From NCBI GenBank assembly GCA_044892505.1, contig CM097883.1, forward strand, positions 78,182,001 through 78,246,000: DNA of 64,000 bases, given 5' to 3'. The stretch comes from Schmidtea nova. Taxonomy: Eukaryota. Made by a program: the position numbers and the translations under genes. Shown piece after piece: positions 4,847 to 47,942 of the stretch. The notes under the pieces are model-generated. The model had not been told where the DNA came from and ran no database searches. It worked only from the letters and a program-made list of their open reading frames with translations. Each line of letters begins with the position of its first letter. Positions within the stretch are counted from its first letter, which is position 1.

Positions 4847-4925
4847 TATTTTTACATGATTCAATTTGTAATTTAATTCTCTTCAAGGGTTGAAAATAAT
4901 TTTTAAATTAATCTTTTTACTCATA

Positions 4926-6352
4926 CCCCGGGCTACCAAAAGTCTCCAGTCCGACAGTTATTTACATAGTGCAGTTTATAATGAACGTCTGCAGCGCAAA
5001 TATGAACAGCAATGGAACAAAGATCACCAACACCTTCAACATGCTGCATGTGCACATGTACACACACATGCACACACATAGACACACACAGAATATGACT
5101 ACTCACACAAGACACACAACAGCGATAACAGGGAGTCATGTTAATGAAAGATTGTCACTTTCTTAGAATATGACTACTCACACCAGACACACAACAGTGA
5201 TAGCAGTGAGCCATGTTAATAAAGGATTGTCAATTTCTTAGAATATGGCTACTCAGAGAGAACTTACAGACTTTCAGAAAAGCATTATTTACGGATGTTA
5301 CCTCTGTGAAAAAAGTCAGAGTGAAACTGATGCATTGACAGGCCATCCCAAAGGAACTACTTCCTAAAGAAGTACCGCCAGGAACAGGCACATAAACTTC
5401 TGAGAATCCGTACACAACGGCAGCTGAAACGATTTGTGGTCACTAATCGTCGATTCCCCTTTCATATTTAGTGTCCACATTTAACACTGGCCCTGTGCAT
5501 GCCAGCATGTCCACCATTCGTCACGCATTAAATTTTCATGGTTTCTATGGCAGATACTGTGCAAGGAAGCCCTTGATTACAGAAACAATTCGTCGTCGTC
5601 GCTTGATTTGGTTCCGGGATAGAAGGAGTTGGGCAGCAGAACAATGGCGCTCAGTCATTTGGAGTGATGAATCACGTTTTACTCTTTTTATATTCGATGG
5701 ACAGCAATTCTGCTGGTGTCGTGTAGGAGAAGGATTTCACCCTGACAGCATTCAGCCAACTGTGAAATATGGAGGAGACTCAATCATGTTTTAGAGTCTT
5801 TTGTCAGATCGTGGAACTGGCCCTCTAGTGAAGTGCAACAATCACATGACGTCAGTGGAATACTGTGCCATTCTGGAAAATGAGCTTGTTCCCTTTCTCA
5901 CAGAAATTGAGGGGGTCATTTTCCAACAGGATAATGCACCAATCCAGACTTCGCACATTATGAAGGAATTCTTTCTGCAGCTACTATCAACGTTTTTGAT
6001 TTGGCTCCACAAAGCCCTGATCTGAATCCTATTAAGTTTCTGTGGGACTTCGTTGGTAGGTGAGTTTGCAAAAGGATTCCTATTGCCCGTAACGCCTCCG
6101 AACTGGAAACGCATCTGCATGAGGAATGGTCATACATCTTCCCTGATTTCCTGGCAAAAGTGGTCGATACAATGCTTAAACAAATGCGCCTTGTTATCCA
6201 GATGAAAGGTAATAAAGCGAAGTACTAACTCTCTCAGCATTACAGACATTCAGTATCCGTGTGTGTTTGTGACATTTGTTCCCATTGCTGTTCATTATAA
6301 ACTGCAATATGTAAATAACTTCCTAACTGGAGACTTTTGGTAGACCGGGGCA
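4926..6352 (+). mobile_element. Tc1-family transposon, decayed transposase (about 5245-6228)
   Basis: Long TIRs (CTACCAAAAGTCTCCAGT..AGTTATTTACATA.TGCAGTTTATAATGAAC at both ends); N-terminus MATQRELTDFQKSII at 5245; catalytic motifs VIWSDESRF and FQQDNAP plus a frameshifted SPDLNPI-like motif; stops and frameshifts. Confidence 0.9.
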
Positions 6353-6383
6353 TATTAACAAAGATTGTAGTAAAATATTTTAA

Positions 6384-7010
6384 ATGGAGTTGCAAAATTA
6401 AGCTTTTTATCAAATTGTTAGACCGAGTGGTAGCGGCAAAACACTTTTTGTATGTAAATTATTGCAATTTAATCTTTTTGTTGAAAAATTCAATAAAATA
6501 TATTGTCACAAGGATTCAGAGTTTGAAAATGGATCAACACAATCAGAATTTTGTAAAGTTAAAAATTATTCAAGGATTTAATAAAGATTGGAGCAAACGT
6601 TTACAAAAAAGAGACGTCATCATTATTGATGATTTTTATCAAGAAACCAACAAAGAAAAGGAATTTAATAATTTGTTTACAAAGATTACTCGTCATTTTG
6701 GAGTTACTGTCATATTTATAACTCGAAACCTGTTCCATCAAGAATGAAATCATAGAACTCGTAATTTAAATGTGTATTATCTAGTAATTTTTAAAAATCC
6801 AAGAGATGCAACAGCTATTGATTTTCTAGCAAGGCAAGCATATTCAAACAATAGAAAATTTCTACTTGAAGTATTTCAAGGTACAACTAAAACTCCACAT
6901 GGTTATTTATTTCTAAACTTCACTCAAAAAATGTTCAGATGATTTACACGTTCAAACAGATATTTTTAATAAAAACGGAACAACAGTATATAAAAAAGTT
7001 GATCAAAAAG
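6384..7010 (+). pseudogene. Maverick A32-like packaging ATPase (frameshifted)
   Basis: Walker A (R)PSGSGKT near 6410-6435; after a frameshift, Walker B IIIDD and LFTKITRHFGVTVIFITRNLFHQ..NVYYLVIFKNPRDA..LARQ..TPHGYLF, typical of Polinton ATPases. Confidence 0.85.
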
Positions 7011-7233
7011 AAATATTAATAATGTCGTTTCAAACAATAATTGTCAAACCTTCAAAGAAAAGAAATTTAAAGAAATTGACTAAAAACAATACAAGAGAAA
7101 AATTTCAAATAAACTTGTATCAAAAACTAGTTTTACAGAACTAACAGAATTTCAATTATCCAAACAAAAACCTATGGAATTCAAAACATCTAGGCAATTC
7201 AAGATTCCACGGAGTTAGTCGTATTTTAATTTA

Positions 7234-7533
7234 TTGCTAAAGGCTCCAAAACAATCGAGAATGATAATTTTACAATCATTTCCTACATTTGTGATTGATG
7301 ATTTACTGGATATAATAATGAAAATTGTATATGGTAAGGTAAATATTAGCGTTGCAAAGAAACAAATGTTGATTAAACACAAGAAATTTCTTTTATCTCT
7401 TGTAAATAGTAAGAATAAGAAGCAAATGATAAAGATTATGTATAAACAACATGGTGGATTTATTGCAGTTCTGTTACCTCTTGCATTATCATTATTAGGC
7501 GAAGCAGGTTTATTAGGTGCACCTAAAGCATAA
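7234..7533 (+). CDS. Maverick small basic core protein with QxGG site and amphipathic C-terminal peptide
   Basis: Lys-rich ORF ending KQHGG-FIAVLLPLALSLLGEAGLLG; lies between ATPase and integrase as in other Polintons. Confidence 0.7.
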   Translation: MLKAPKQSRMIILQSFPTFVIDDLLDIIMKIVYGKVNISVAKKQMLIKHKKFLLSLVNSKNKKQMIKIMYKQHGGFIAVLLPLALSLLGEAGLLGAPKA

Positions 7534-7598
7534 ATATAGGGCGCTAGTCATTCATTACCTGATTTCCAGCTTAGCTTGATTTAACTCAAATTGTTGCA

Positions 7599-9210
7599 AT
7601 GGAGGAAATTTGAACAAACCCGCAAGATCCAGTATCTTTCGAAAGAGTCGACAGACTGCAAAAATCTATCAAGAAATAAAAAAACGAGACTCAAACATGG
7701 TTATCGAACCAACTTCCATACAGTCTAAACAAACCAATGCAGAAAAGATTTCCAACAAGAGCATATAAAACATTTGGTATTGATGATTTGTGGCAATTAG
7801 ATTTGATGGAAATGATTTCATACTCAAAAATCAACAAAGGTTACAAGTATATTCTAACATGCATTGAAGTTTTTAGCCGGTACGCAAGACACATTCCAGT
7901 AAAATCAAAATCTGCATACAAAATGTCAATAGCAATCAAAAATTTATTTGCTGATGGTCACCCATTTAATTTACAAACAGATTTGGGTAGAGTTCTACAA
8001 TAGTTAAGTGAAACAAATTCTAAAAGAAAACCATGTAAATCATTATATTGTAAATTCCCAATACAAGGCAGCACATGTTGAAAGTTTATCGTACATTGTG
8101 AGATAAATTAAAAAAGTATTTTTTACATCAAATTAATAAAACATGGATACATGTTTTACCAAAACTTGTGCATTCATGCAGTGGTAGAACTTCAAAATTT
8201 AGGCCCCCGCGAAAAAGTAAAATAGTTCCCCATTTAATTTTTTAACAAAACATATTAGATATTTATTTCATATATCATAAAACAATAAAAATATAAATAA
8301 TAAATAAAACTTATGAACCTTAAATTTAAAAATCTTTTCTCCTTGATTTCATATTGGCAAATTCATTAATTATTTTTTTAAATTCCATTTTTCCAGCCTC
8401 TTTTGCTTCAATATAAAGTATAGAAAGATCGCTTAAATGCTCCTTTCCAATGGTATTACGCATATAATATTTTATTATTTTCAGCTTTGAAAAACAACGT
8501 TCAGCTGATATAGCCGTAACAGGTAGCGTGAGAAATAATAACAATGCTGTTATCACCTGTGGAACACTTGCAGCTATAGTTGACAATTTTACTATTAAAA
8601 GTTTTTGCAAATTCGCGTACAGATGAAATTTTGGAAATTTGGGTCCTCTATAAAATATGATTGTAAAAGATTTTTTCAAAAATAAATTTTAATAATAACT
8701 TTGGGCCCTCTATAGCTGCTGGACCCCCATGTAGTGCAGGGTCCTGCGTCCACTAGTTCCGCCACTGCATTCATATAACCATTCATCACATCGTGGTTTA
8801 AATAGATTGAGACCAATTGATGTTTCATCAGATAATCAAATAAAGTTGTGGTTGTCTAGTAAAACTACAAAACCAAAGAAACAAAACTATGAAATCGGAG
8901 AATATGTGCGAATATTAAAAATTGGCGCTTCACCATTCATTAAAAACTTTGACAGTAAATTGGAGTGATGTAGTATTTCAAATTTCAAAGACTAATACAA
9001 AACAGAATACAGTCATGTATGTCATTAAAGATTATGACAACAATGAAATTGTGGGGAAATCCTATGAACAAGTATTTTAAGTTATTCCATCACACTCAAT
9101 ATTTAGAATAGAAAAGATTCTAAAGACAAAAGGAAAAGGTATCACGTCAATATCACGTCAAATGGCATGGATATCAAAGCCCTACTTGGATATCAGAATC
9201 TCAGTTACAA
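7599..9210 (+). pseudogene. Maverick retroviral-like (rve) integrase with C-terminal chromo-like region, split by a hAT insertion
   Basis: WLSNQLPYSLNKP..LWQLDLMEM..YKYILTCIEVFSRY..LQTDLG; removing 8179-8767 plus one TSD copy restores KLVHSYNHSSHRGL; later FRIEKILKTKGK. Confidence 0.9.
8179..8767 (-). mobile_element. Internally deleted hAT element nested in the Maverick integrase
   Basis: TIRs CAGTGGTAGAACT / AGTTCCGCCACTG; 8-bp TSD CATTCATG / CATTCATA; ORF 8326-8679(-) LPVTAISAERCFSKLKIIK..LSDLSILYIE = hAT dimerisation domain. Confidence 0.9.
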
Positions 9211-9950
9211 TGAATAAAAGTAATTTCTATATGATTTTACCACGTAATAGTTGCCCAACAATTCATCCTAATAACGAATCTAGTAACTTAGTTGTTGAAA
9301 TTCAAAATCAAATCTATTTGAATGGAAATTGGGAGGTATCCTATTTGATAAAACTGTGAGAATAGAACTTGAGACTCTTCCGAAAACTGGAAAGATGATG
9401 GAATTCAAATTCAACTCTTGTACAATGAAAAATCTGAATATGCGTATATCTTTAAAGATGAATTATATATTGCAGATCTTGATCAATTACAAGTTTATTT
9501 AATACAAAATTGTGCAAATATTTTAGCAATAGTCGAATTAGAAAAAGACAAATGTTTTTAATTCCAAAATAATTCTAAAATGAGTCAAGTTAAATTTAAT
9601 TCAAATTTGGTAAAAACATTAGGATTACAAAAGAACATATTTTACAAAATGGTTAAGTTAAAGAAGGAACATCAAAATCCAAAATAATTAAACTTCATCA
9701 ACAAATGTTCATCTATATCAATATTGTTGAATCTGTAATTGTTGGTGATGTAGAAGTTCCTCTTTTGAAAACAGTATGGGTTGAAAAACATGAACAGGAA
9801 GAAGTGGTTCAAATACAGATTGAAAATCCCATATATTTATATGTTTTGACATCTTGTATAAACAATATAGAAATTAATATATGCGATGATTACGGAAGAT
9901 TAATAACCTTTCCAAAGATTCAAAAATTCATTTGACTTACATTTTAAAAA
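9210..9950 (+). pseudogene. Maverick minor capsid (penton-like) protein
   Basis: N-terminus NFYMILPRNS..HPNN..YLNGNWEVS and C-terminus IYINIVESVIVGDVEVPLLK..NPIY..IEINICDDYG match Polinton minor capsid motifs; disrupted in the middle. Confidence 0.8.
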
Positions 9951-9955
9951 GGTGA

Positions 9956-10292
9956 ATGTCTAATCCCGATATTGTTTCATTGTAAAGCGATAGTCAAACT
10001 GGTGGGGAATTACCATATTTTGTTGAAATACAATATATATCCGGTTGGCGACGAATAATTGCTTCCTATACTTAAAATGAATGGTTCTTTTGGTATGAAC
10101 ACAGCAAAATATGTGATTATGAAAGATTAGAAAATACTCTCTACTCTGAAAAGACATGCAATGGAAGAAATTGGAAAATTAAGACCTAGTGCTAAAAAGG
10201 CTTTTAAACCAAGTGAAGCAGAAAACCAGAAGCAAAAAAACGTCAAAAGTTTCTTATAAACAAAAGATGGAAAGGTCGTGGAACCATATTTG
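9956..10292 (+). pseudogene. Second Maverick core protein (QTGG motif, basic C-terminus)
   Basis: MSNPDIVSL*SDSQTGGELPYFV.., then basic LKRHAMEEIGKLRPSAKKAFK; between minor and major capsid genes; stops and frameshifts. Confidence 0.55.
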
Positions 10293-10295
10293 AAA

Positions 10296-11552
10296 ATGAT
10301 TTGCAGCAAAACTGAATTGTGTATTTTTGATCGTCCATCATCTCAAGTAGTAATTGAACATGGTGCATTCGAACATGGATTTCCCATGAACGTAATTACT
10401 GATTCTAGAAAGGATATTGAATTTTATATTAACGGATCGCAAACAGAATAGTTGGATTTAAATGACACTTTATTATTTCTTCAAATGAAAGTTGTAAGTA
10501 AAGACAATAAAAGTTTGAAAGTTGTAAATAAAGACAATAAAGATTTGGCTAATGGTATATATGTAGTACCGAGTAACTTCATGTTTCATACTCTATTTAA
10601 AGGTGTTATACTGCGATTTGATAATATTAAAATTTAAGGGGGGGGGGAACAACACATATACACAAAGTTTTATTGAAACAAATTTAAACTATAATGGATA
10701 TACAAAGAGTGTTTCGCTTGCAGCAATTGGTTATGGAACCAAAGAATTTAGAAAAACAATGGATTTCAAAATCAAGATTTTTTAATATGTTCATCATTAC
10801 AATTAAATTCTATGGATCAACCCAAATAACTGATTCCCAGTGATATTGTTCACATTCGTCTAAAAAGATCAGAATCAAAGTTTTGTTTGGATACAAATGT
10901 TGCTGGAGGAGCACCAAAATATCAATTGGTTGATGCGAAATTGATGGTGCACCGAGTAAGAGTTGAATCATCAGTGTTGGTAGGTCATCAAATTGGTCTC
11001 AATTCGCAATATGCAATCTATCGCAACAATACAAAAGAAATTGTTGCATTTGCAATAAGCAAATGTTCTTCATCCTTTTATAAGGAACAAATATTTTGAG
11101 ATAAGCGTTTGCCAAACTTTATTCTTGTAACCTTTTAATCAGGAGCTCAATATAACGGTTCATGCACGGAAACAAGCTCAAAATTTGACCATTTCAGTAT
11201 AACTTCATTAACCTTATCAAAGAACTATGATTACCGTGAAACATATACCCAAGATTTTGACAACGATAATTATGCTGTAAATTATATGCAATCTATACTA
11301 CGAAATATGATTTTTTTAGATAAGAATTTAAATTTTGGAATAGATCTTTTAGACTTTAAAAACAAATATTCATTCTTTACATTTGTTTTGGCTCCCGACT
11401 TGGATTGGAATCAAGCACATTTACCTCAAAATAGTAATTTAAGACTTGATATTAAATTCAATAAGGTTTTGACATCCCCTGCATATGTCATAATTTATGG
11501 TGTTTTTGAGAGTAAAGTTCAAATTTCAGGAAGTCTAGCAATTTTAGTTTAA
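10296..11552 (+). pseudogene. Maverick major capsid protein (double jelly-roll)
   Basis: CSKTELCIFDRPSSQ..IEFYING..DLNDTLL; later AKLMVHRVRV, FTFVLAPD and NLRLDIKFNKVLTSPAYVIIYGVFE; several stops and frameshifts. Confidence 0.85.
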
Positions 11553-11619
11553 ACGAAGTTTTTGTTGACGAAAAAGGTGAAGTATGGAGTAAGTTTGTTT
11601 TTATAGATGATTTTACTAA

Positions 11620-11960
11620 TTTAGTTCTATTCAGGTAAAAAGAATTGCATCAAATCTATTTAGGTGCGAAGTTTTGGGAGTTTTTCCTTTGGATAAAATC
11701 AAGTTTTCGACAATAACAATGCTATTATCGTGAATACTCAATCCTCGAGATTTGGTGAAGAACATTGGTTAACCATTTATGTGAAAAAGATTCATGTATT
11801 TGATCCTATAAGTTATTATTATCCATCACTCTTGGTGTCAAAGCGGTCGAAATTATCAAAACCTGTTTTGTACAATAAAGTTAGATATCAAGATCCATTT
11901 ACAATTACTTGCGGACAATATTGTATGGTTTGGTTTGGTTTTATGTTTAATATATGTTAG
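11620..11960 (+). pseudogene. Adenain-like cysteine protease of the Maverick
   Basis: GVFPLD..IIVNT..GEEHW..VFD..YQ..TCGQYC: catalytic His, Asp, Cys and oxyanion Gln in the expected order. Confidence 0.85.
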
Positions 11961-12720: not shown

Positions 12721-14991
12721 AAATAACAAATGATAAAAATCGAAAAATTTATAGAAACATATACTTCATTAATTGGAATATATAAAATAAACATGAAAAA
12801 TAAAAATAAAAATAAAATACCTTGCGAGGTGCGATTGGAGCATACACCTCGCCTTTCAAGATAATTATCCTTACATTGAGCTTTCTTCCGATAAATCAGG
12901 AAACTGCTGTCGGACCAGATAGGCTTGGATAAATTTGTGTTTTCTCAATAACGAGTTCTAACAATCGGTGATCCAACAAAGGCTTTAGAGAATTATTGTT
13001 GTTTTCAATAATAAACGATGTAAGCGTTCAAACAAGTCATGAGTACCCGCAATAAGCTCAAAATTTCAAAAAACTATCCTTTGAAAATTTTTAAGAAAAC
13101 CTCTGTGTTTCTTGAAATGAAATATCCAAAAACAATGTTTAGAGTTTTAAAAAAGTCTCTCGGATAATATTTTTAACAATTAGTGTCAAAAAAGTGTATT
13201 TCAGAAAAGAGTGTTTTTTCCAAATGAGTGTTTATAGAAAAAGTGGTTTATTTTCTCACAAACTGGTGGTTTTTTGCCCGATTTGGTGGCGATTTGTTGG
13301 GGAAAAAAGGTTGGGGATATCTTGATCTTAACACAGATTTGACTCTACAAATATAAATATAACGATTAAATAAAATTCAAATAAGGAAGTGTTCACCGAT
13401 AAATTATATTTCAAATTATAAAATAAATATGTTGGTAAATATTAAAAGTAGGTACAATAAATGGTATTAGATACCACAGAAGAATTCAGCAAGAGGTAAT
13501 CGGTGGTGCTAAATGCCCACACCGTTTTGTATATTACAGATGAGGAAAGTAAAGGTTAGATTTTAGGGCTACTCAGGTGAATACAACAAATCAAACTGTT
13601 GATTCGCGATAAATATATCAACAAATAATACCAACTGATTCAATAAGTGAGTGAAATCAAAATTTTCTCAATAGCTTTTAAAAATGCAAATGATACGCTA
13701 TTTAACAGTTCCTTCTCTTCTGAGCTAAATATAAAAAATTAATCCTCTCTTGGATTGAACTGTTCAAAACATTTCTCTAGAATTATCGTATTCTTTTCTT
13801 TCTTTTCGTTTCATACTTGTCGATAGTTTATTAAATTCTACACAGGTGAAGACACTTGGTAGACAGGCAAATACCTTTCTCTTATTTCACTGGTCTTGTT
13901 GACCTTATTTATATTATAAATTTTGGAATGTTAAATAGTTCTTAGTGTTTTTATATTACTAATTTAATAATAATTATTATATATATTTTTATTTTTAGTA
14001 TATTTAAAATATTATTGATATTATATTTTTATTTTTAATAATTTTAACTTTCTATTTTTAATATTATAATTAAATTTTGATTAAACTAACATAATTTGGA
14101 CACAAGGTCCATCCCTAACAGATTTATATAGTGATTATTTCTACCTCCTCATTTGATGCAGTAAACCAAGTTTTTCATGATCAAATTTTTCGATTTTTTG
14201 AATTAAATTATTTTCATTTTTTCAAAAATTAAAATTATATTTTTGTATAAAATTTTATTAAAGTTTTAAATAAATTTATTTTAATCTAAAATTTTATATG
14301 TTAATCAAAGTTTTTACCAATTTAACAAATTTTGTTAAATTTTTTTCAAATTTTTTTCTTTTGCATTTTCTCATTTATTTTTATATAAATGGAAAGAATT
14401 TTCTATAAAACATTTGAGTTTTTTCTAATTTGTAGTTAATTTACTGAAATTAATGTTTTTATGTTATTTTTGTTTTTTACGTGTTTATTTGATGCAATTG
14501 TTCATTTTATTTTTAAAATGTGTTTTAATTAAATCGTATTGTGTTTCTGTGGTTTGTTTATTTGGTGTTTTCTGATAATATTTCAAGTTCACTTATTGTG
14601 CGCTCTTTACGTGCTGCGTTACCGTTTTAATCAAACATTACTTGTTTGCGTTTAGTTTTGCCAAGAAGTTGTTAGGTGCATGATATTTTGACACAGCATT
14701 TATTAAGTGTGTACTTCCTTGATAAATTTGATAAAAGCTGCGCCAAAATATTGTGTATCTAACAACAAAAATAAATTTTGATCTAGTCATACGATTATGA
14801 AAATTATTGATTTAAAGATTTTAATTAATTAATTTGTAAGTATATTTGTAATTACGTCCCCATAGATTTGAAAATTCTTCTTCAACTTTTCATTCGCTAA
14901 ATGCTCATACCATTTTCCCGAAAATATTCATTTATAACTTCTTAATGTTTTTATTAATTTTTGCACTTTCATTTTGATTTCACATTTAGAA

Positions 14992-15618
14992 TGTAGTGCC
15001 TCCGTCATTTATCTATTATTTATATATTAAAAGTAACTAAAATTTAATTAAATATATTTTTAATTATATAAGAATATAAAAGAAAAATAACATCGATATA
15101 TATGGGTTGTTTAACCATTAACCAGGTAATGGTAATATCCTTCCCACATAAAAAAATACATTTTACCGGGCAATGGTTGTAAATTTCCCACAAAATGTCA
15201 AAAATGTTTTTCAGGATTTCCACAAGGATTTTCTTTTTTGCAATATATATTTTTTTAAATATACTCTACAAGTAATTTGATTGCACAAATACATTTTTAA
15301 TAAGTTTGCTATATATCTGTGGCCTGGTTAAGATTTAAAAAAGCAGATTTGTTTTAAAAGAGGAGTTTTGTGAGAAGAAAAGATTTTTGAAAACAGATTT
15401 AGTTCAAAAAGCACGTTTAAAGAAAGAAGCACTAAAAAGCAATTTTGTTACAAGCACTAAAAGAGAAGTTAAAAGAAGAAGTACAAAAAATACAAGTTTA
15501 AAAGACGAAGAGCAGTTTTAAATCCTACAAGTTTACAAATAAACAACAAATGAATATTTTAATCAAATATATTTTATGTATTGGTTTATTAATTTTTGAT
15601 TCAGTTACATTCACTAAA
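14992..15618 (+). repeat. 5' LTR (contains a 224-bp TTAA-flanked insertion)
   Basis: Starts TGTAGTG, ends CACTAAA; aligns with the 3' LTR except for 15115-15338. Confidence 0.95.
15115..15334. mobile_element. piggyBac-like MITE inside the 5' LTR
   Basis: Flanked by a TTAA duplication (single TTAA at the matching position of the 3' LTR); short inverted ends TTAACCAGG / CCTGGTTAA. Confidence 0.7.
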
Positions 15619-16584
15619 AATGGTGTCAGAAGACCTGATCATGCCGATCTCTCTCGTATTCAGTACAGTTTCAAGACTCCTAGCACGACATTTCAACAAG
15701 CATCAGAAACTGAATACCGAAGATCTGAATCGGAAAAGCGCGAAAGCAACAATTACAACAAGCAATCAATCGAATACTCAGTTAATTTCGTCTCATCTCC
15801 TAAACAGAATCTTATTGGTCACAGATTTACTATGCAATGTAAAGTCATTCCGAAATTCGCAAACACCAGATACTCATGGTACAAAAATGGTCAATTAATT
15901 AGCTATGATGAGAGCACCACTTTTGAACAATTGAGACGAGAAGATTTGGGTTCTTATAAATGCGCTGTTAAAGGAACTACTGAGACCGGGTCAACAATGG
16001 AATTGGAAGCCTCGATATTTCAACCAGCCTCAGAAACTACATTCCGTCAATCAGTAGAAACAGGAAAGCGCGAAAGTGTCAATTACAACAGGCAATCAGT
16101 TGAATACTCAGTCAACATCGTCTCATCACCTGAACAATATGTCATTGGTCAAAGATTTACCACGCAATGTGAAGTTAATCCTCAATTCAAAACTGCTAGT
16201 TATTCTTGTCCGTTGCGTAAACTCGACCTCGGCTCCTATTCATGTGTGGTTTACGGGTCCACTAACAACGGAGTGGCAATTCAACTGGAAGCGTCTATCT
16301 CTCAAAACAATTGCGGCAGTTACTTCGTATTATCTGGCGAGTGGTATTTTATATCTATTATTTATAATATTACATTACATAATATATTATATTTATTTAC
16401 ATTATTTTTATTCATACTAAATTTTAAAATTATTTATATTATTCTTCTCAAAATTTACAAATACTCTGCCCAGTTTCTTTTCGACAGCTTCAATACAAGT
16501 TACGCCCACAACCCTACACACACTTTCTTGTACAACAGAGATTCTTCCACCACCACCGAGATTTTCCCCCAAAATATGTCTTAA
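15550..16584 (+). CDS. 344-aa ORF: LTR-derived hydrophobic N-terminus, two tandem Ig-like domains, hydrophobic tail
   Basis: Ig1 has C-x12-W(YKNG)-x27-C with DLGSYKC; Ig2 is a diverged repeat (327-nt period) with DLGSYSC and an in-frame 48-nt deletion of the W strand; no stop in 344 codons. Confidence 0.75.
   Translation: MNILIKYILCIGLLIFDSVTFTKNGVRRPDHADLSRIQYSFKTPSTTFQQASETEYRRSESEKRESNNYNKQSIEYSVNFVSSPKQNLIGHRFTMQCKVIPKFANTRYSWYKNGQLISYDESTTFEQLRREDLGSYKCAVKGTTETGSTMELEASIFQPASETTFRQSVETGKRESVNYNRQSVEYSVNIVSSPEQYVIGQRFTTQCEVNPQFKTASYSCPLRKLDLGSYSCVVYGSTNNGVAIQLEASISQNNCGSYFVLSGEWYFISIIYNITLHNILYLFTLFLFILNFKIIYIILLKIYKYSAQFLFDSFNTSYAHNPTHTFLYNRDSSTTTEIFPQNMS
15621..15632 (+). promoter_or_regulatory. 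Primer-binding site complementary to the tRNA-Leu(CAA) 3' end
   Basis: TGGTGTCAGAAG, 2 nt after the LTR end; the reverse complement CTTCTGACACCA is the canonical eukaryotic tRNA-Leu(CAA) 3' terminus. Confidence 0.8.
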
Positions 16585-16766
16585 CGCTCTTCAATAACAA
16601 AATAACTCAAGTAAATATCATCACAGATTTACACACAGATATAGCTGCGTTTCACCACATTTACAACACATCTTTTTATTTATCGACCAACACATTTCGC
16701 ATCGCTACAACCTCTGAAATCAAACCAAACTCGATCGTAGTCGTCCATTTACGTATTCTTGGAGGC
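16572..16766 (+). pseudogene. Ubiquitin-like module upstream of gag
   Basis: Open frame (16428-16886, no ATG) reads ..TLFNNKITQVNII..FYLSTNTFRIATTSEIKPNSIVVVHLRILGG and then runs into Gag-like sequence. Confidence 0.5.
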
Positions 16767-16799
16767 GTGCGACCTCAAACAGAACCGACTTCCTCATTC

Positions 16800-19700
16800 G
16801 TTCCCCGTCCAATTTTGTTTTTTTTGGATCCCGACGGTACATCCTCGCCGATGCTCTTTATTCAGATAACCCGTACGATGATTTGAAATCCCTGATAGTA
16901 TCCAAGTATATCTCATCACAGAACCAGGCTCTCACAAAACCTTTGGCACCACAAAATTGCATCGGACAACAACCCAGCATTTTCTTAGCACATATTGCTC
17001 GCTCCAACGACACCGCCATACCTGATTTGTCCAAAAACACACAGCTCTTAAAAGACCAATTTCTTTCCGCACTTCCATACCATTTACAAACCTCCCTCGC
17101 ATTGGAACTCTGAAGACCCGTACCATCTTGCTAAAATAGCCGATCGCATCTACGCACTTCAACCCCATAAACTTCGCACCGATAATTACACTTACCACCA
17201 CCATATCCCATCGTCAACTCAACACATACATATGATATCCACTACCCTCGCAACGTCGAAAGATATGCCATCCACACGCCGCCCTCGCATAATGTACAAC
17301 ATCCGAACCAACCACCAACAACACGCACACAAAACATACAACCCAATAATAGTTCACAACTAATCTGCTTTTACCATAACAGATTTAAACAACACGCACA
17401 GAAATGCTGCATCGGTTGCACTTCCGAATTCCGTACGCGTCATAACCCAATCATTCCAATGTGCATTCACCATCACCTTTTCAAGACAAGGGCATCATCC
17501 GAAGCACTTCTTCCCCATGGAATTCCCCTATTCATGTAGTCACGAAGAAAAACGGCTCCTTCCACCCCTGTGGCGATTTTTGCGCGTTGAACAGCCTAAC
17601 AATTCATGACGCTTACCCTATGCCACTCATCAAGGACCTATTTTCACGTTTTTCCGGGAATACAGTCTTTTCAACGATCGACCTCGCCAAAGTTTTTCAT
17701 CAGTTCCCTGTAAATTCAGATGACATTCCAAAAACAGAGGTAACTACCCCTTTCGGCAATTTCGAATAATTGTTCATGCCATTTGGCCTGAGGAATGCTG
17801 CACAAACACTCCAACGCTTCATAGACATCACCTTCCCACATCTCAACCACACCTTCACCTATCTAAACGATATTATTGTCGCTTCTCCGACGAGTCCACA
17901 CACGTAAGAGACTTAATACAGGTTTTCGAAGTCCTCCACAGAAATAACCTCCGGATTAGCCATGATAAGTGCCAGTTCTTCAAGTCGTGCGTCCGCTTTC
18001 TAGGCCACATACTGTCAGCAGACGGATGCGAACCATTCTCAGAAAGGCTAGACATTATCCATTCATTTCCCAAACCATCCACGGTCACAGAACTTCGCAG
18101 CTTTCTCGGAACTGTAAACTTCTGTTACAGATTTATCCCGAACTAGTCCCACATTACCGCACCACTATCAACACTCAATCACGGCCCCAAAAGGCTTTTA
18201 TAAAATGGTCCGACGAAACAGATCAGGCCTTCACCGACGTAAAAGACGCATTGACTAATATCTCAACGCTGTATTACCCACATAACGACCTCCCATTCAC
18301 TCTAACCACCGACGCCTCAGAGATAGCGGCCTGGCCATTCTCCACCAAATTAAATACAACGTTTCTCTCCCCATCGAATTTTTTCCACGTAAATACTCAT
18401 TAGCAGAAACAAGGTACAGCGCCTTCGACAAAGAACTACTAGCCATCGTGCTGTCCGTCAAACATTTCCGGCACTTCCTAGAGTGTAGACATTTCACAAT
18501 ATTCACCGACCATAAGCCTCTCCTACACTGCCTCACCATGAAAGATCCATCAAATAGGGTATTCCGTCAGCTCGCTTTTTTATCATCGTTTGATTTTGTG
18601 ATCAAACACATTGCCGGAGGTGACACGTCATTGCAGATTGCCTTTCGCGTGCGATCATAAACTCAATATCTTTTTCTCCCATCTTCTCGCTAGACATTCT
18701 TGCATCCACGCATCCTTCCAAGAAAGACATTTCAAGATTTAAAGACTTCCACAAACTCATCGATGGTGTACATTATGATACATCTTTTAAAAGCACACTA
18801 CGCCCATAATACACGAGTCACTCCGCAAAGAAGCATTTTTCGTGGTTCATAACCTACACCATCCCGGCATTAAATCCACATACGCTCTACTACGCTAGAA
18901 AGTTACCTGTTACGCCCTATTCAAAAATGTCAAACGATGGGTCAGTGAGTGTCAAGGGTGCCGGCAACATAAAATTAACAAGCATGTCAAACCACCGCTC
19001 ACCCCTTTCCCTACAGGTTCCCACTTCGGCATTTTGCACATCGACCTAGTAGAACCACTCCCGACAGACAACGGTTTTTCCTTCATCCTTACCATGATAG
19101 ATCGTAAGACACGATGGTTCGAAGCAGTACCCATACCCAATATCACAGCACCTACAGTAGCAGACTACTTAGCGTCTACCTGGTTCTCTCGTTACGATAT
19201 CCCTACCACCATCATTACAGATCAAGGCCGCCATTTCGAATCGGACTTATTTAATTACATAACAAACGCCCTCAATATTAAGTACATACGCACTTCCGCC
19301 TATTATCCACAGACCAACGGCCTAGTCGAACGCGCTCACCGCACTATCAAGACCTCACTTCGCATTCTCGCATCTTCCTATGGATGGACCAAATCCTTGC
19401 AGTTCGTACTACTTGGATGGCACAACAAACCTAATCGTTCAAGCGGAGTTTCTCCGGCACAGTTATTGTTCGGCTCCAACACACTCATGCTATCACAGCT
19501 TATAGATACAGACTCCGAATCGTCCCTCCAACAAATAAACCAGGCCCACAGCCACTTCCTTGCCTTGAACTCTAACCCGTCCTTCATATCCTCTACCTCT
19601 TACAAGCCTTACATGCCAAATACTCTTACCTCAGTCTCACATGCCAGGTTAAAATACATTGACTCATCCAACATGAAGCCCTGGTATAAAGGACCCTTCC

Positions 19701-19995
19701 CCATTATAAAAATGCATAAGAACACGGCTCAACTATACATAGACGGTACAACACAAAAAAACCTGTCAAAAACCTGAACCACTTAAAACCGGCTTTTATA
19801 CTGATAGAACAGGACAACGAGCTTCCCCTGCACCACCAATCAGACGAAGATCTAACCGACGACCCCCCATATAATCCAAACTCACAGGTTCTCTATCCCT
19901 TACCCATTCCGCAGGCCGAACCATTTTGTGATCTATCATCACACAACCACATCCGCCGTCCTCCACAGTATCTCTCAGACTACCATCTCGATTTC
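16800..19995 (+). pseudogene. Gypsy gag-pol (Gag, RT, RNase H, integrase); protease region deleted
   Basis: Gag PYDDLK..PS..L..FLSALP and CFYH..C..C; RT SPWNSPIHVV, TPFG, MPFGLRNA, YLND (mutated YLDD); RNase H TDAS, DKELLAI, FTDHKPL; integrase H..HPG..C..C, HIDLV, DQG..FES, NGLVER; C-terminal RRPPQYLSDY. Confidence 0.95.
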
Positions 19996-20061
19996 CAATC
20001 TGACCCTTGAATTCCGTTTTGCCCTTTTCCCATACGCTCCGCGTACTTCGGCGGGAGCTAA

Positions 20062-20486
20062 TGTAGTGCCTCCGTCATTTATCTATTATTTATATATTAA
20101 AAGTAACTAAAATTTAATTAAATATATTTTTAATTATATAAGAATATAAAAGAAAAATAACATATCGATATATAGGGGTTGTTTAAAAAAGCAGATTTAT
20201 TTTAAAAAGAAGTTTTGTGAGAAGAAAAGATTTTTGAATACAGATTTAGTTCAAAAAGCACGTTTAAAGAAAGAAGCACTAAAAAGCAATTTTGTTGGAA
20301 GCACTAAAAAAGCAATTTTGTTACAAGCACTAAAAGAGAAATTAAAAGAAGTACAAAAAATACAAGTTTAAAAGAAGAAGAGCAGTTTAATCCTATAAGT
20401 TTACAAATAAACAACAAATAAATATTTTAATCAAATATATTTTATGTATTGGTTTATTAATTTTTCATTCAGTTACATTCACTAAA
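20062..20486 (+). repeat. 3' LTR
   Basis: Direct repeat of the 5' LTR followed by the TSD TAGAA. Confidence 0.95.
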
Positions 20487-23400
20487 TAGAAATTTTAATA
20501 AATTCTCTACTCGATTTTTTAATTGATTATATATCTCAATTTTATTTCCCATTAATTTGCGTTAAACACATATTTTTTTCTGTATACTATTATAGTTGTA
20601 ATGTTGAATTTTTTTGTCCAGTGATTTTGGGAATGAAATAAAATATCTCCTTTTGGTTTCACCTTTGATCTCTTTTTTAATTCAATAATTTTCATATTAA
20701 TATTTTTTTGGTTATTAGGCACACGATTATATTACTTATTAAATGTAACACGTGATACTTAATAAAATATATTTCTATTTATTCAAAGGGGTACCCTAAT
20801 CCATTTTGCAGCAAGGCCACAAAATAATTTAGCACGAGCTTGTTGCACCATCACAAACAGAAAGCGATATACACCGTATAACACTGAATACAGCCTTCTA
20901 TAATATTAGTTGGTGCGTATGTCAGTGATAAATCATGATTTTTAACTGGATAAAGTAAGAAATTTACATAAATTTATCATTTAAATATGACTTTTTAGAA
21001 ATTTACCAACTTTATAATGGATTTATTTTCACACAAAGTAAGAAACTAAAGTAAAATTTAAAATTTTATATCATTAATCTCCTAAGATATCTAATATTTT
21101 GCAGCATTTTGGAAAAAAGCGCTGAATATGTAGATAATAATTTTTAAGATTTTTATATTCATCTATTTCTAACTCATTTTGCAATGCTTCTTTTTTAGGC
21201 CAAATTTTAATAGTGTAATTAATTGTTTTTTAAGATTCTAAACAGACTGCCAAATTTTATGTGATCCTCCCCATTTTCCATTACATTGAAGATTTTGGCT
21301 TTGTCATTTTCTGATATTCTATTACAATATAACATTTTTAAAATTTTAGCCAATTGTTGGATTATTAATGAATAGTCGGTTGATATCTGACTCCTGTGTT
21401 CTTTCTTTCAAGACAACAAATTAGACCCAACACAATAAATTTTTATTTCTCCAATTCTATCGCAAAAAATATCAATCACAAAAGTTATAATTGTTATCTG
21501 CACTCTGCGTTAGGGTAGAAGACCCAATGGGAGATATCCGTTTCTGGTACCCAGGAAAATTGATAAATCGATACTCTACAACTTTCAATTACCGTTTTAG
21601 CTTTCTTTATGAGTTTTCTATTCTCACTCAATTCTTTAAATTTTTCTTCGAGCAACTGGCGATATCGGCAAATGACTCTCAGTTTATATAGCGCCTTTTT
21701 CCTTTCATCCTGTCACATTAATTGGATCTATCAAAATAAAATAATTTGATTGCTTTTGCCACTGCCTAATTGAATTTTGCTGAAACTGGGTTCGCGGCTT
21801 TTCCCGGAGCATCCTTTGCTCATTCAATTTATTTGGATAATTAAATGATCTTGTTGATGCCCCGGGTTTCTCACATCGCTCGGGTTTCCCATTAGGCAAT
21901 TAATAATTTTTAATTAATTTGTATTTTCTTAATATTTCTTTCTGGAGGGCCCTTTTTACTTTAATATACCCATATTTAAATTTTCCTCATCATTTTGCAT
22001 CCTCCCATACCAGTTCCCCCTCTAAATCTTTATTTTTGATTTTTATAAATTCTTAATTAATGTTTGCCAATTTTATAATTATTTTTCCAAATTTGTATTT
22101 TTTATTGATTTGCCCTTAACTTTTGTACCTTTTACTTTTACTTCCTGTTTATTTTAACAACCTTAACACAATAAAACCGACGTTTTCCTAGTTTTTTTGT
22201 AAATCAAGCACTGCAGAACACAAAAACTCTTTCATTAAATGATACTATGAAAATTTTGATTTAATGATATATTGAAAAATAATTTTTACAAATTTGACTG
22301 ATCATTTCCCCGGAAAAGTTTACGTTGATCCTTCAGAAATATTGGAATTGCTATAAAAATTTTAATTAATTATAAAAATTAAATCTTACAATATGTCCTC
22401 TTGAAAAATAATCTTTTTCAAAGATTTTGCTTTTAAAATTGGTTTCATTTTAAGTCAATAAAAAATAATTAAAATAAAGAAGATAATAACTTTTTTGCGT
22501 GTTTAAAATTTTTTTATTGCTTTTTGTTGATTGATTAAAATTTTTCCCATTAACATTTTTCATGCAGTTTCTACTATATAATGCCGTTTTGTGGTCTAAA
22601 AATTTTTCCTACCCTTTTTGTCTAACACATAATGAAGATATTATTCATTGTTAGCACACCGATAACACAAAAGTGAGTTTTTGGAATTTTTAGTATAATT
22701 TCATTTTATATTATAGGAGGCGGTATTCATCATTATACGGTGTATAAGTGACCTCTTATTTTAGACAAAGATACATAAAAACAACACTCACATTGTCAGT
22801 TATCAAATATATTTAACACTTTTAAACTAATAATTCTTATCGCTCACTCATCCAAAGATAAGGCCAGTGACCATTTTTGTTACAAACTAGTCATAGTATT
22901 AAATCATTTAATTTACTATTTATCAAGTTAAATTGTTGCTAGAATCAGATTAAATTAAAGGCTGAGTAAATTCCATAATAGTAAAAGAAATTTTTGTGTT
23001 AATGAATCTTATTCGTCGTGTTAAATAAATTTTTAAACAAAAGAATGTTGAAACTTTATTATGAATTAGATATGCGCAACTCCGATAAAAATGCATTCCA
23101 ATAAGAATTATAAATCAAATAAATATTCATCCTCATCAAGCCATCACTTTTGTAGAATAATGTAATGCTACCATCTTTCCATTAAATTCAATCACTCATT
23201 TCTGTAACTTCTGAACTTTTATGCACCAATGTTCTTGAGTACATTCAACTTTTACACATTCTTCAAAATCTTGGAATATCACAAAGGGTTTCAGTTCAAC
23301 GTTCGCTTTTATGAGCTTTTCCAAATTTATTTAGTATTTATAATATTCTATCAAATCTCGTTTTATGGTCGTATAATATCAACCATTTTTTTAATATCGT

Positions 23401-27550: not shown

Positions 27551-27769
27551 GTAATAACAAAAAAATTCTTTATGAAACCATTTGCAATCGATGAAAGTTT
27601 ATGTGTAATTTAAGAATATAAATTGCATTTTTGATTTTTTTAAATAAGTTCCCCCCTTTTCGGAAGAAGAAAGGGAAGAAATAATTTTTTTCAAAAAATG
27701 GACATGTTTTTTTAGCTTAATTCAAAAGAGTAATAGTAATAACTAAGCAACTTTTATTAAGAAATAAGA

Positions 27770-28105
27770 TACGGAACTGTTAGTAATCTGTACAAAATGT
27801 ACAAAATGAACTTCAGTTTCAAAGATTCAATTTTTCTCGATTTCGCGTGAAGTTCCACCATCAGTTTTACAGCACGTTCAGCAATTTTGTTAGATCTGGG
27901 AATGTCAATTAATGACTCCTCGACTGACCAATGCGTCTTTAAACACTTAATTGCTTTCTTGAATTTTATATTGTTGAGTGAGGTAAACAGTTCATTAAAG
28001 GACGCTTCATTGTAGTGCTACAAATGGAATCAAGCATTTGTCCATTCGTAGCAGATGAATTCGCATGCTTGGAGCGAGGATGCTGCGCCACTCTGGAATT
28101 AGAAA
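27770..28105 (-). mobile_element. C-terminal remnant of a DNA transposase (NxxAERAVKL motif)
   Basis: Minus strand reads CLKTHWSVEESLIDIPRSNKIAERAVKLMVELHAK; abuts the truncated Gypsy pol at about 28105; (TA)n at 27502-27547 lies beyond it. Confidence 0.45.
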
Positions 28106-29950
28106 TAATGTCAAACTAAATTTGTAAATCCCAGATCAAATTTCGACGCCATAAAGATTCCGCCGTATTTCCTGATCATTTCTTCAATGTCTTTATTATT
28201 CTCACTTGCCATCGCCATCAGTGCTTCATTTATTCTCTCTTCATCAGTGTGAATTTTGTTTATAAATGAAGTTTCTATATTATTGATCTTCACTAACTTT
28301 ACTCCAAGCTCCTTCATTGTATCAATACCCCCTATGAATTCAGTCTTGATTTCTTTTACAACCACTACTGTGATAATTTTGATCTTCTGATTCCATGTGA
28401 CCAGTACATTTATATATTCCATTGCTTCTTCACTTCCAGTTGAAAACACGCCGCATAATAATATAGTACTACGTTGAAGGTTTGGTCTGTCTATTCATTC
28501 CCACAAATCCTTGTTCATGACTGTTACTGACGCTCCAGAGTCCCATAACATATCTACTTCTGTATTTCCCAACATTATTTTACTCCAACTTCTTCCATCC
28601 TTCGTCTGATGCATCTCTTCTTCTGTCTCGTCTCTTCTTCGTTCATTTCTTCTTTCACAATTTATTGTCTTGACTCCACCGACAAAATGAAACCCATGGA
28701 GTCGCTGATGTTTTTTCCGTCTTCTCTCAATGTAGTATATTTCTAAGGAACATTGTATCTATCTTCCATATCGCTGTGAGCTATTCTGAAATCCTGGCTG
28801 TTCTCTGTGTAATCTCTTCTTTCAGATTTGAAATCTTCTTCTTCTATGCATGCTATTCTTTGATATCGGTGGGTAACATTTTTCCGTAACGAAAAACAAT
28901 TTCGGAACCCGTGTCCCTCCTTACTACATATCAGGCATTTATTTTTCAGTGGGCCCTCATATCTTCTGTGTCCCCTTTAGCCACAGCAAAAACAATCACC
29001 TATTGTTAATTTTGGAGCCAGTGCTTGTGGTAGTCCTCTACTTTCATTATAGATCCTTCCTGCTATATTCTTCATGGATAATGTTGGCAGTTTCCTTTCT
29101 GACCCATCTTATATTCTCACCTTTCTCAAAAATTGTTCTCTTGGAATTTTTCTCGACGACTGTGGTTATTTTCTTCGTATTGTATTGATTCGCGTTCAGG
29201 ATTTTTGTCTCTTCTTGGTCTGTGATGACTAAATGGCTCTTCTGATAGTCTTCTTTGTAATGGTGTAGGTCTGGTATCTTGAGTATTCTGTTGAATTCTC
29301 ATTTGCCCTTCCTCAATCACGCTAGCATATGTCCTTTTACCAATTGCTTTAATAAATTCAGTTTTATTGCTTCCATTTTGTAACTCTCAAAAATCTTCGT
29401 CAATGATCTCCTTTCTTTAATTTTTGTTTCTGGTTTCATCAATAATATCTCCCTCAGTCTCGCATCGCGTGCTTTATTTGCGATAAGATCTTGCACAATA
29501 TCTTCTCCTGATCGTCTTGAATTTATAACTTCAGCTAAAGCTTCCCTTAATCGTATCTCGAAAGCTTCATAACGTTCATCATCTTCCAGTTCCAGAACTG
29601 CCAATTCTCTGATTTTGTCAGTTATTGAGTTAGTAATTGTGAAAGTATATAAGAACCAAGTTTTGGCTTTCACATCTGTTGTTTCTGTTTCTCTGACGTT
29701 TCCACACAATGTCTTAGCTTCTGCCACTAATAACACATCGAAGGTGCTTGTCAATCGCTGTCCATTTGTCAACAGTCATTCTTCTATGTCCCTGATCTAT
29801 TCTTCTGCTTCTTTTGATCCTCGTCCATAATATCGTCTGATATTCAGCGTAAGCATATCTTGGGATGATTTTGGTAGACATTCCATTAACGTCTTTGTTG
29901 ATTTCGAAACTGCATTGACATTCTGATTTTCGGCGTGGTCGCCAGTTAAA
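28105..29950 (-). mobile_element. Truncated Ty3/Gypsy element: PBS, gag with two CCHC knuckles, aspartic protease, start of RT
   Basis: PBS-like TGGCGACCAC (29935-29944, -); gag ORF 29317-29772; CFCCG.RGH and CLICSKEGHGFRNC knuckles; protease MLWDSGASVTV at about 28520-28555; KYGGIFMASKFDLG before the truncation. Confidence 0.85.
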
Positions 29951-34200: not shown

Positions 34201-37200
34201 AATTCGTGTAAAAAGAGAAAAAGAAATTCTTTTTAATTCGTGTAAAAACAGAATTAGGTGTATATGTTTAATTTATTTCATTATAAAGGTTATTAAGTAA
34301 TCAGAAAGTAACCAGAATTACATTGAAAACATGTTGAAGTCATCGAAATATGAAGTATATATCAAGAATGGCAAATTTATAGGGAACTCCCGACACCCTA
34401 ATGGTGGTTCACTAAAAATACTGATTATTTTTTATAGAATTTCAGGATATCTACGTTTTAATTAAGTATAATACGTAAATTTTTGATTTCCAATTATCTT
34501 TCACTACTTGTGTTAGTGTTTCCATAAATTTTCGATTATTTTTAGCTGATGTATTTCCTTTTTTATTTATCATTCAATCTCCATATTCATTCAAAGAACC
34601 ACATTTAAATTTCTCCAAATATTTATAATCAATTGATTCATCAGAGTTCGGCGATGAATCTTCATTATAACTAAATGACATTCTAAATCTGAGCTCGCAT
34701 AACAATTTAAGTACATATTTATACATTATTATTCATTCCTCTATGAATCTTGTTCAATTACTTTAAATTAAATCATTTGATCTTAACCGGTGATAATAGA
34801 AAAGGGACGTTGTTTTCATTTTTTAAATTTCATTTTTAATAAGTAATTGGAAAATAACAAAGAAGCCATTATTTGTAGAATTATATAGAATATAAAAAAT
34901 GTTCAATTTTAGTAGACGAATTAAATTAATATCCTAACAAATCTAAAAAATAATTCAAGTTTTCAAGGAGGTGCGAAAATCTATTTTTAATCTCAAAAGC
35001 GAAACAAGTAATGATTACAATTAATAAACATTTAATTACATATATTTTTATTGAAAATATATCCAATCGGGCTAATTTGATGCATACAAAAATACAATAA
35101 CTAAAATGTTGATTAAAAGTGAAAACTTCATCATTTCCCATCTAACTATCAATAAAATCAACTCGTTTTGCTCGAAATAATAAAAATTACAAATTTGCAA
35201 CAAAAACATTTTAGATTCACCAACTCAACTAGATAAATATTGGCGCATTCTATTACTATACAAAATATATAAGTTCTTAATATTTATCATTGCATAACAG
35301 CTTTACAAGGAATATATGGTTAAATTGCATAAATGATGTGGAAACTGATTGTCAGGAAACATTTAAATAATTTCATGTTGCCTATTTGTTATTACTATAA
35401 ATATTTATTTAATTGTTTTACAATATCTTACAAAATTATCTGAAATATGAATAAATCAATTGCTTTTTGGTATTTTTGTTATTTGCTACTGATGCCGCAT
35501 TATATTGACTTGATATTGATACTCATACGGTCCTGTAAATGCATTTCTAGATACAAAATGCATACACGTTCCAGTATTTATTCCGATCCCTGTACCAGTT
35601 TATATACCAATTCCGACATTTGTTAGAGAAAAACCCAAACCAAAGGATTTGGAAATTGTTCAGGAAGTAAATCCTGACGAAACAGAACTAATTGTGGAAT
35701 ATGAAGCAACAAATGGGGATAAAAATATTATATCGGTTGAGACTTCATCGATAGATAATTTAATAGATAAATCTGTAGAAGAAGCTAATGCTAATGCAGT
35801 TGATGTGTTAATGTCAATAGAAGAATCACCGATAAAAGAGGCTTATGTGAATCCTTCTTCTGTTGTATTTTCTCAAGATAAACATATTACTATTTCCACT
35901 GAAGAAGGATCAGCTCCGTCGAAAGAAACTCCAGTAGAAGTGAAAGAAGCGCCAGTAGAATATAAAGAAACGCGAGTAGATTATAAAGAAACTCCAGTAG
36001 AATCTAAAGTGAATCATTATTGTTGAAGAGATTTCATTAATCGATATAATAACAGAAACGTCGACTGAGCGATACGGAATCGATGCCGACTAAAATCAGG
36101 AAAACTGAAGCAACAGTAATAGAAAAGAAAGAGACCGATCCATGCAAATTGAAATATTCCTACGGAATCAACGCGTGGCGTCACTGGTCTAAAAATCTCG
36201 ATCTATTGAAATTGAATGTCACGGAAATCAATAAATATTTGATTGAATTCGTTCAGAAGATCCGTAAACCAACAAATGAGCGCTATGTTCCAGATTCTAT
36301 ATTTTATTTGTGTCTAGGTAATCTGGCCAAGGATTTCTCTCTTGATCTTAATTCTATTATTATAATAGGCATTCAATTGTTTTTATTGGATCATAAAAAT
36401 GAACTGAATTTGTTTGTTGATCCAAGATTGTTGGGATTTCAAAGTGAATTGAATAAAATTTTGGCTACTTTTAAACAGAAACTCGGAGAAAATCACGTTC
36501 TCGTTTGTCGTATCGAGGAAGATCACCTGTGGGAATCGCGACAGCTCGGCTGTCATGATCCTGGAGTAAGTTATCTTCACTGAATTATATATATTAGTGG
36601 TGAGTCGATTTTTGATTTGGAAATCGGAATTGACCGTATTCCTATTCTTGCCGATTAATCGGTATCAGCACGGACAGGCCTACCGATTCAAATTGTGTTA
36701 AAACCGGTTAATCAATTAAACATAAAATTATAAATAAATATTAGCGTTATATACGTTTATAATACCTTCTTCCATGTATCCAGTTACATTATCTTGTCAA
36801 ATAAAAATATTAAAATAATAGCTGATTTTATTGTTTATTTCTGCGATCATCCCGCGACAGACTTGATAGAAAACGGATTTTATTAAATCATATAAAATTT
36901 CCAAGATTAATTTAATCGGAATCGGAATCGGTAAAAAAAACTTCACTGATATTCGGATTCCGGAATCGGTAAAAAATCAAAATCGGCCCACCCTAATATA
37001 TATATATTTATATATATATATATATACCGTATTTATTTTCTTATAACACACACCTTTAATAATTTTCTGTTTGATATATGAAAATTAAAACCGTACATTC
37101 AAATTACGGAAAGCTAGTATGTTTATTCAAAATATTGATCAGGCAGATAAAGGCTGCTATTTCCAACTAAATTGGAATCTTGAATGCCCTCACCCAGGGG

Positions 37201-47044: not shown

Positions 47045-47942
47045 TTAACGTTACTTGGAGAATATGACACTATGTAAACTTGGAATATAGAATGGTGTTG
47101 GCAATTAGTATGTCTTTCTAGTGTGTCTTCAAACCAGAAGCATCGAAAGGCAATTTCACCATTATTTTATCCCCTTTTGCTTTCAACCTATAGAATAGTA
47201 TTTTATTTTGTTGACCATTGGCAATTTATTAACACTAAAAACAATATTTAATTTTATATTAATTCTATTGGATAATAATTAAATTAAATTAATAATGAAG
47301 TGCTGAGCACTGAATAAATTGAGATAAGTTAAATGAAACCAAATAAAGAAATACCCGCCAATTTCTGAAAATTCCTCACAATTGGTGCGAACTTCAAAGG
47401 GTAACATTTGATTATAATATTTTATTTCTTCATTAAATTAAAAAAGAAAAAATTTTGAGATGAGATTTGAAAATTTGGGAATAAATAATAAATATTGGAT
47501 CGTATTACTGAAAATAACTTACTCTGTAGTCATGCAACCGAGCTGTCGCGAGTTTAAAAGTGAAATATTATTTTATATTTTTAACTAATTTTATTTAATT
47601 TTAACAAAATTAACTTGTGCTGATTCAATTGGTAATTTGGTATAAATGGTTTTGCAGACAAGCCGTTGTAAGGAATTAATAAGCCCGATTTGTAGAATTT
47701 AATTTCACTATTAACAATANNNNNNNNNNNNNNNNNNNNNNNNNNNNNNNNNNNNNNNNNNNNNNNNNNNNNNNNNNNNNNNNNNNNNNNNNNNNNNNNN
47801 NNNNNNNNNNNNNNNNNNNNNNNNNNNNNNNNNNNNNNNNNNNNNNNNNNNCACTCAATACCAATATTTCTCTGGTTTCATTGCCAAGGTTGTTTAAACT
47901 AAATTAGGTTATTTTTAAAATTCTGAATACAAAAATGACATA
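47045..47942 (-). repeat. Inverted copies of both flanks of the ZMYM-like exon 5-7 block around an N gap
   Basis: 47045-47719 is the reverse complement of about 58270-58927; 47852-47942 is the reverse complement of about 54993-55080. Confidence 0.85.

Follow-up and report, generated by a model that had tools for sequence, protein, structure and literature searches.

The window analysed here, 64,000 nt of Schmidtea nova contig CM097883.1, contains a Ty3/Gypsy LTR retrotransposon of 5.5 kb that carries approximately 800 nt of foreign DNA with two immunoglobulin-like (Ig) repeats (Table 1). Both LTRs, a 5-nt target-site duplication (TSD, TAGAA on either side), a PBS-like 12-mer and a polypurine tract were recovered, confirming the LTR pair, PBS and TSD described in an earlier note on this DNA. 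The two LTRs differed at 9 of 397 aligned bases (2.3% divergence). We take the PBS-like 12-mer to be of the tRNA-Leu type and, by its look, not of the tRNA-Trp type; tRNA and Rfam searches gave no match in the 64-kb window. An insert observed in the 5' LTR only appears to be MITE-like and arrived after integration. No second copy of this insert was found within the window, and the Gypsy element itself was likewise seen as a single copy there.

Table 1. Features of the Gypsy element and of the DNA it carries, in window coordinates.
Feature	Position	Strand	Remark
Left TSD	14987..14991	+	TAGAA
5' LTR	14992..15618	+	627 nt, ends TGT...AAA
Insert in LTR	15123..15335		flanked by TTAA, short inverted ends, 5' LTR only
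344-codon open frame	15550..16584	+	LTR-derived hydrophobic start, Ig1, damaged Ig2, AT-tract hydrophobic stretch
PBS-like 12-mer	15621..15632	+	behind 5' LTR
Probable gag start	15641..15672	+	ATG 15641, 11 codons, closing in left CAGTTTC; GC skew -0.33, like element
Left copy of 7-nt direct repeat	15666..15672	+	CAGTTTC
Tail of preceding host Ig unit (putative end of exon n-1)	15685..15727	+	matches P0003 linker
Putative host exon n, complete Ig domain (repeat 1)	15728..16057	+	88/109 identical to P0003 unit, linkers included
Putative host exon n+1, second Ig unit (repeat 2)	16058..16336	+	16 residues lost in frame, core Trp among them; 61/92 identities with P0003 unit, linkers included
Donor-like site, then AT tract	16337..16470	+	G/GCGAGT, 13% GC; probable start of retained host intron
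Right copy of 7-nt direct repeat	16471..16477	+	CAGTTTC; element sequence resumes
Broken gag	16473..17419	+	several frames; weak DUF7041 match
Gag knuckle	17366..17419	+	CX2HX9CX3C (CHCC)
pol remnant	17479..19995	+	RT-RNase H-integrase, Pfam domains
Polypurine tract	20048..20061	+	ahead of 3' LTR
3' LTR	20062..20486	+	425 nt
Right TSD	20487..20491	+	TAGAA

State of the element and other features of the window

Domains of reverse transcriptase, RNase H and integrase were recovered in Gypsy order, in agreement with the gag-pol region of Gypsy type that had been proposed. Fifty-seven pol relatives were found, eight of which were mapped onto the window. All eight begin matching at 17479-17485, 60 nt past the gag knuckle. 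In the relatives of sufficient length this point is preceded by a protease motif, for which there was no counterpart in the window. A frame-aware alignment to two relatives revealed 3 stops and 6 frameshifts over 2.5 kb of pol. The element is therefore not intact: the protease is absent, pol is broken nine times, and the intact gag and protease-bearing pol of an autonomous Gypsy element were not found. This copy is dead and non-autonomous.

The gag segment 16575-16772, ending in LRILGG, has a hydrophobic pattern that we took to be reminiscent of a ubiquitin-like domain. It gave no PDB match, no Pfam ubiquitin family and no usable Atlas match, and its single-sequence model reached a pLDDT of 45. 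Some distant pol relatives bear additional families: P0208 and P0210, one of which is annotated as a cold shock CspA family protein, have PF00313, and P0197 and P0200 have PF00680.

Elsewhere in the window, a gene segment of the QRICH1/DUF3504 type, interrupted by an intron of 51 nt, was present in two copies (35396-36600 and 57053-58248, 98.6% identical), with related pieces near 38988-39193 and 43553-44062 and, inverted, at 47049-47719. Transposase remnants at 4872-6458, 37126-38562, 55401-56674 and 61415-62447 were Tc1-like, pogo/Tc5-like (two) and mariner-like (one). The open reading frames at 7219-11957, which look like a Polinton/Maverick remnant, include an integrase fragment (7680-8000) and have a hAT fragment inside (8329-8688). 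Open reading frame pieces at 27760-29775 on the minus strand resembled, by eye and with no fitting Pfam match, a second and unrelated gag-protease remnant, and those at 58811-60294, which had no Pfam match, resembled a Penelope-like reverse transcriptase. Two N runs, or assembly gaps, were also observed (47720-47851 and 54674-54814, 273 bases in total).

The Ig repeats and their closest relative

The 327-nt period reported for the two tandem repeats was confirmed (15686 versus 16013), becoming 330 nt after a 3-nt indel. Repeat 1 belongs to the immunoglobulin superfamily by profile, fold and core residues: it exceeded the cut-offs of both Ig_2 and Ig_3 in Pfam (29.7 bits for Ig_2, cut-off 27), was modelled as a beta-sandwich with a pLDDT of 68-91 over residues 31-110, and has the Cys-Trp-Cys core. 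Repeat 2 failed the same test, matching no Ig family in Pfam at E-values up to 10 and modelling poorly (pLDDT about 45-59). The Ig fold and the motif C..W.KNG..DLGSYxC, both previously ascribed to the pair, thus hold for repeat 1 only, as W.KNG is among the 16 residues missing from repeat 2. Fold matches of the cargo were Ig or Ig-like, those of the two-domain model being weak (best E 9e-5). Differences between the repeats fell on first, second and third codon positions in the numbers 25, 18 and 40 over 92 codons, so that the earlier wording, largely third positions, was an overstatement. The purifying selection deduced from these differences stands (pN/pS between repeats 0.38, bootstrap 0.26-0.55) and would most simply have acted while both Ig units belonged to a host gene.

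A single outstanding match was obtained among the 1.84 billion representatives searched, P0003 (UniParc UPI00060F0DB2), a protein of 1301 aa without a functional name that was matched over 13 stretches and contains Ig units of 109 aa, arrayed in tandem and almost identical to one another. The cargo has the same 109-aa unit and linker, and this host tandem-Ig protein thus shows the type of gene from which the cargo came. Other long matches were generic multi-Ig proteins near 30% identity. Matches to sialoadhesin, CD22 and hemicentin (23-37% identity) were set aside as generic multi-Ig similarity, and phage Ig proteins, which gave the best PDB sequence matches and were among the top fold matches, were rejected as the source on identity (roughly 30%, versus ~81% for P0003). 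P0003 is nevertheless not the exact template, because within one 26-residue stretch of it repeat 2 is identical and repeat 1 differs at 7 residues; the cargo would instead derive from units that the P0003 model does not include, from a different paralogue or from a different species. The same 7 versus 0 differences imply that cargo divergence does not reflect uniform decay, and for this reason dating the capture from it was rejected. In one P0003 unit 27 residues are duplicated internally, which may be an error of the protein model or of the assembly. The parent gene is not located in the 64-kb window, where tblastn with the Ig repeat, the search that had been proposed for finding it, matched the cargo only.

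Putative exon boundaries and a probable retained intron

Three single-Ig relatives (P0001, P0002 and P0047), open reading frames on contigs of 0.5-0.9 kb that are 38-55% identical to repeat 1, were compared at their ends. In all three, the unit closes with a Gly, behind which comes a short tail of unrelated sequence, and it opens behind I-I-E or I-L-A. These ends read like phase-1 exons running into flanking introns, and the one host intron checked (51 nt, 36318-36368, in the QRICH1-like gene), out of the introns that the earlier note placed every 60-460 nt, ends in the same style as this read-through. The homogeneous array of P0003 starts at the same point, with K/SENRES once and E/SENRES eight times, the K and E codons differing in their first base. 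Because the three relatives and the P0003 array agree on this point, the protein ends indicate that a parent of the P0003 type would have one phase-1 exon per Ig unit.

Mapped on the window, the putative exon boundaries fall at 15727/15728, 16057/16058 and 16336/16337. The first two are crossed without an intron. The third lies 13 residues past the domain-end motif, at the same distance as in P0001. It reads G/GCGAGT, one base off a canonical donor, and only 0.11% of the positions in the window show this pattern. Directly after it the GC content drops from 40% to 13%, and 124 nt of intron-like DNA follow, probably the beginning of a host intron that was retained. Since two boundaries lack an intron and the third is donor-like and followed by intron-like DNA, the cargo probably comprises an exon tail, two exons and an intron start, copied from a partly spliced or intron-terminated RNA. 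The earlier description of an intron-less piece of ~650 nt agrees with the two joined boundaries, and fails at 16337, where the retained intron apparently begins. In the same way its capture from host mRNA is upheld as regards the RNA route, to which P0003 and the joined boundaries point, but not as regards a fully spliced mRNA, given the donor-like site and the AT tract.

The intron-like DNA within the cargo could also have been taken up at the DNA level. Here the array units would lie in one long host exon, and the end of this exon and the start of its intron would have been copied by break repair with no splicing involved. The units of P0003 do show the near-identity that long repeated exons may have. 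However, the inferred split codon is where the P0003 array starts, each of the three single-unit relatives looks like one exon, and we consider this origin unlikely.

Junctions between cargo and element

The GC skew was -0.09 in the cargo, compared to -0.33 and -0.55 in the flanking element DNA. Copies of CAGTTTC lie at both compositional edges and in the same phase of the gag-like frames, an ATG is found 25 nt ahead of the left copy, and for 380 nt no Met occurs in the gag frame downstream. On these grounds the insert, with its junctions placed from the sequence, probably interrupts gag near codon 11, and the cargo would lie inside the 5' end of gag instead of between the PBS and gag as previously described. 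A shared 7-mer occurred in 4.2% of random 25-nt zone pairs and in 21% with wider zones, and as a mark of a continuous gag the 7-nt repeat is suggestive only. Three 7-mers are shared between the junction regions; the other two were discarded because they do not lie at both compositional edges. Approximately 10 bases behind the left CAGTTTC match neither element nor cargo. The cargo is in sense orientation to the element and truncated at both ends, and no poly(A) tail was found at the 3' end of the insert.

A misassembly in which an Ig gene was fused with the element would be favoured by a highly repetitive parent, and the assembly does have the two N runs noted above. With no N within 27 kb, an intact TSD, a junction overlap of just 7 nt and introns that a genomic mis-join would not have removed, we regard an artefact as highly improbable.

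Origin of the cargo

We favour, with a probability of about 0.55, the reading that part of a host tandem-Ig gene was retrocopied and placed in the Gypsy element by template switching from a partly spliced RNA. The match to P0003, the joined boundaries, the donor-like third boundary, the pN/pS between the repeats, the contrast in GC skew, the sense orientation, the truncation at both ends and the missing poly(A) argue for it. A host-gene transcript, spliced at two junctions and with the next intron kept, would have been copied along with the element RNA. The reverse transcriptase would have left the element template near the gag start, copied some 800 nt of host RNA, from the intron start through two exons into the tail of a third, and returned to the element near the same place, leaving the 7-nt repeat and the stray bases. 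The chimera would then have integrated, generating the TSD, and decayed. We infer that the join was made by the reverse transcriptase of the element itself. Several observations speak against template switching: the two CAGTTTC copies in one gag phase look like a plain insertion, the exon reading depends on relatives of limited identity to repeat 1, and one element copy is present in the window. Template switching, already suggested in the earlier note, thus stays the favoured mechanism, but a 7-nt repeat in an otherwise continuous gag frame also fits insertion into a resident element.

It is accordingly possible, although we lean away from it, that cDNA of the same partly spliced host RNA was inserted into an already integrated element, either by retroposition of the non-LTR/Penelope type or by break repair. 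The 7-nt repeat would then be a target-site duplication and the LTR element a mere landing place. The position of CAGTTTC at both edges, in phase and at the 4.2% chance level, is consistent with such a history, as are the other late insert that the same copy took in its 5' LTR and the nine breaks in pol, which fit decay after integration. The insert has no poly(A) at its 3' end, however, its sense orientation and its place just behind the PBS would have to be a coincidence, and the repeat carries less weight at the 21% level and among three shared 7-mers.

The 344-codon open frame

A frame opened by the ATG at 15550 runs through the end of the LTR, the cargo, the AT tract and the 5' region of gag, a total of 1032 nt without a stop or frameshift. 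Its openness is the single feature left unexplained by the template-switching model. The frame could belong to a working chimeric gene that uses the LTR promoter to make a signal-Ig-Ig-membrane protein, and selection on behalf of the host or of a non-autonomous element family would then maintain it. Such a gene would be a new type-I membrane protein gene from three unrelated sources, with LTR DNA as signal peptide, host Ig exons and host intron DNA as anchor, maintained while gag-pol decays, or else part of a non-autonomous family that spreads this Ig frame. Hydrophobic 19-mers at both ends of the frame (KD 2.1 and 2.5) and the in-frame nature of the loss in repeat 2 are in keeping with this, and the flanks are open in the cargo frame at a probability of 0.0007 by dinucleotide shuffles (0.16 x 0.38 x 0.046 x 0.24) or of 0.012 given the 11 stop triplets present ((2/3)^11), both calculations being post hoc. 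The cargo would remain unbroken at the break rate of pol with a probability of 0.10, and selection argued from this alone was rejected as not significant. An equally hydrophobic, stop-free stretch was obtained from 25 of 298 AT-rich windows. Further points against a working gene are the loss of the core Trp and the poor model of repeat 2, the five 5' LTR ATGs upstream of 15550, and the start codon itself, which is ATG in the 5' LTR only and ATA in the 3' LTR. We therefore judge a working gene to be very unlikely.

An exact look-up of the 344-codon frame in the protein collection returned no entry, and among 192 candidates the proteins of similar length were only 2 single-domain fragments. An Ig domain was observed in none of the 57 pol relatives, records of pol proteins outside of which the leader region lies. 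An element-encoded surface or adhesion protein, the other possibility raised in the earlier note, finds little support: the domain is damaged, the element dead, the hydrophobic ends LTR- or intron-like, and no full-length relative was among the matches. Most likely the cargo is a pseudogene, probably without a working protein.

Discussion

The most likely reading of this locus is one more capture of a host gene by an LTR element, a known kind of event. If the 344-codon frame were expressed and selected, it would give a rare opportunity to see a surface-protein gene in the making, with DNA of an element, of exons and of an intron as its parts. We found no Ig cargo in a Gypsy element in the open literature searched.

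Among known Gypsy elements, the CsRn1-like Ty3/Gypsy clade, as far as described in the sections drawn upon (PMC2582038), shares with our element the CX2HX9CX3C gag knuckle and allows LTR ends of TGT...AAA or TGT...ATA, the former being present here. In contrast, its TSD is 4 nt and its PBS of the tRNA-Trp type, apparently different from ours. Because of the 5-nt TSD and the PBS apparently unlike the Trp type, we would not file the element in this clade. The giant Burro elements of planarians are also Gypsy elements with host-like domains; according to the main text of the paper, in which the word immunoglobulin does not occur, these domains are fixed in a polyprotein of 4,900 aa and present in thousands of copies (PMC6431247), whereas the element here is short and broken.

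Host gene fragments captured by LTR elements are known in plants and animals (parts of PMC7264820 and PMC6431247). Maize Bs1 and the transducing LTR elements of plants resemble our element in carrying such a fragment, and the cargo of the plant elements has a copy number of one to a few; Bs1 differs in that it joins three genes, at 1-5 copies (from the relevant passages of PMC5131818 and PMC7264820). The closest likeness is to the LTR-mediated retrocopies of animals, which as portrayed in the corresponding sections of Tan et al. 2016 (PMC5131818) are partial retrocopies inside LTR elements that arise by double template switching, have no poly(A) and are often non-autonomous. Both LTRs of one element flank the cargo here and poly(A) is lacking, as the definition of such retrocopies requires. 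The likeness extends to a partial host coding sequence truncated at both ends, its sense orientation, a non-autonomous carrier, a few stray junction bases and, at the protein level, apparently joined exon junctions. Two small twists set our case apart. The template seems to have been only partly spliced, with an intron start apparently kept, and the insert seems to interrupt a gag frame that is continuous over the 7-nt repeat, whereas in the account given in those sections none of the 15 Drosophila cases looked as if an insert had interrupted an element that was otherwise continuous; there, element sequence had been partly replaced (PMC5131818).
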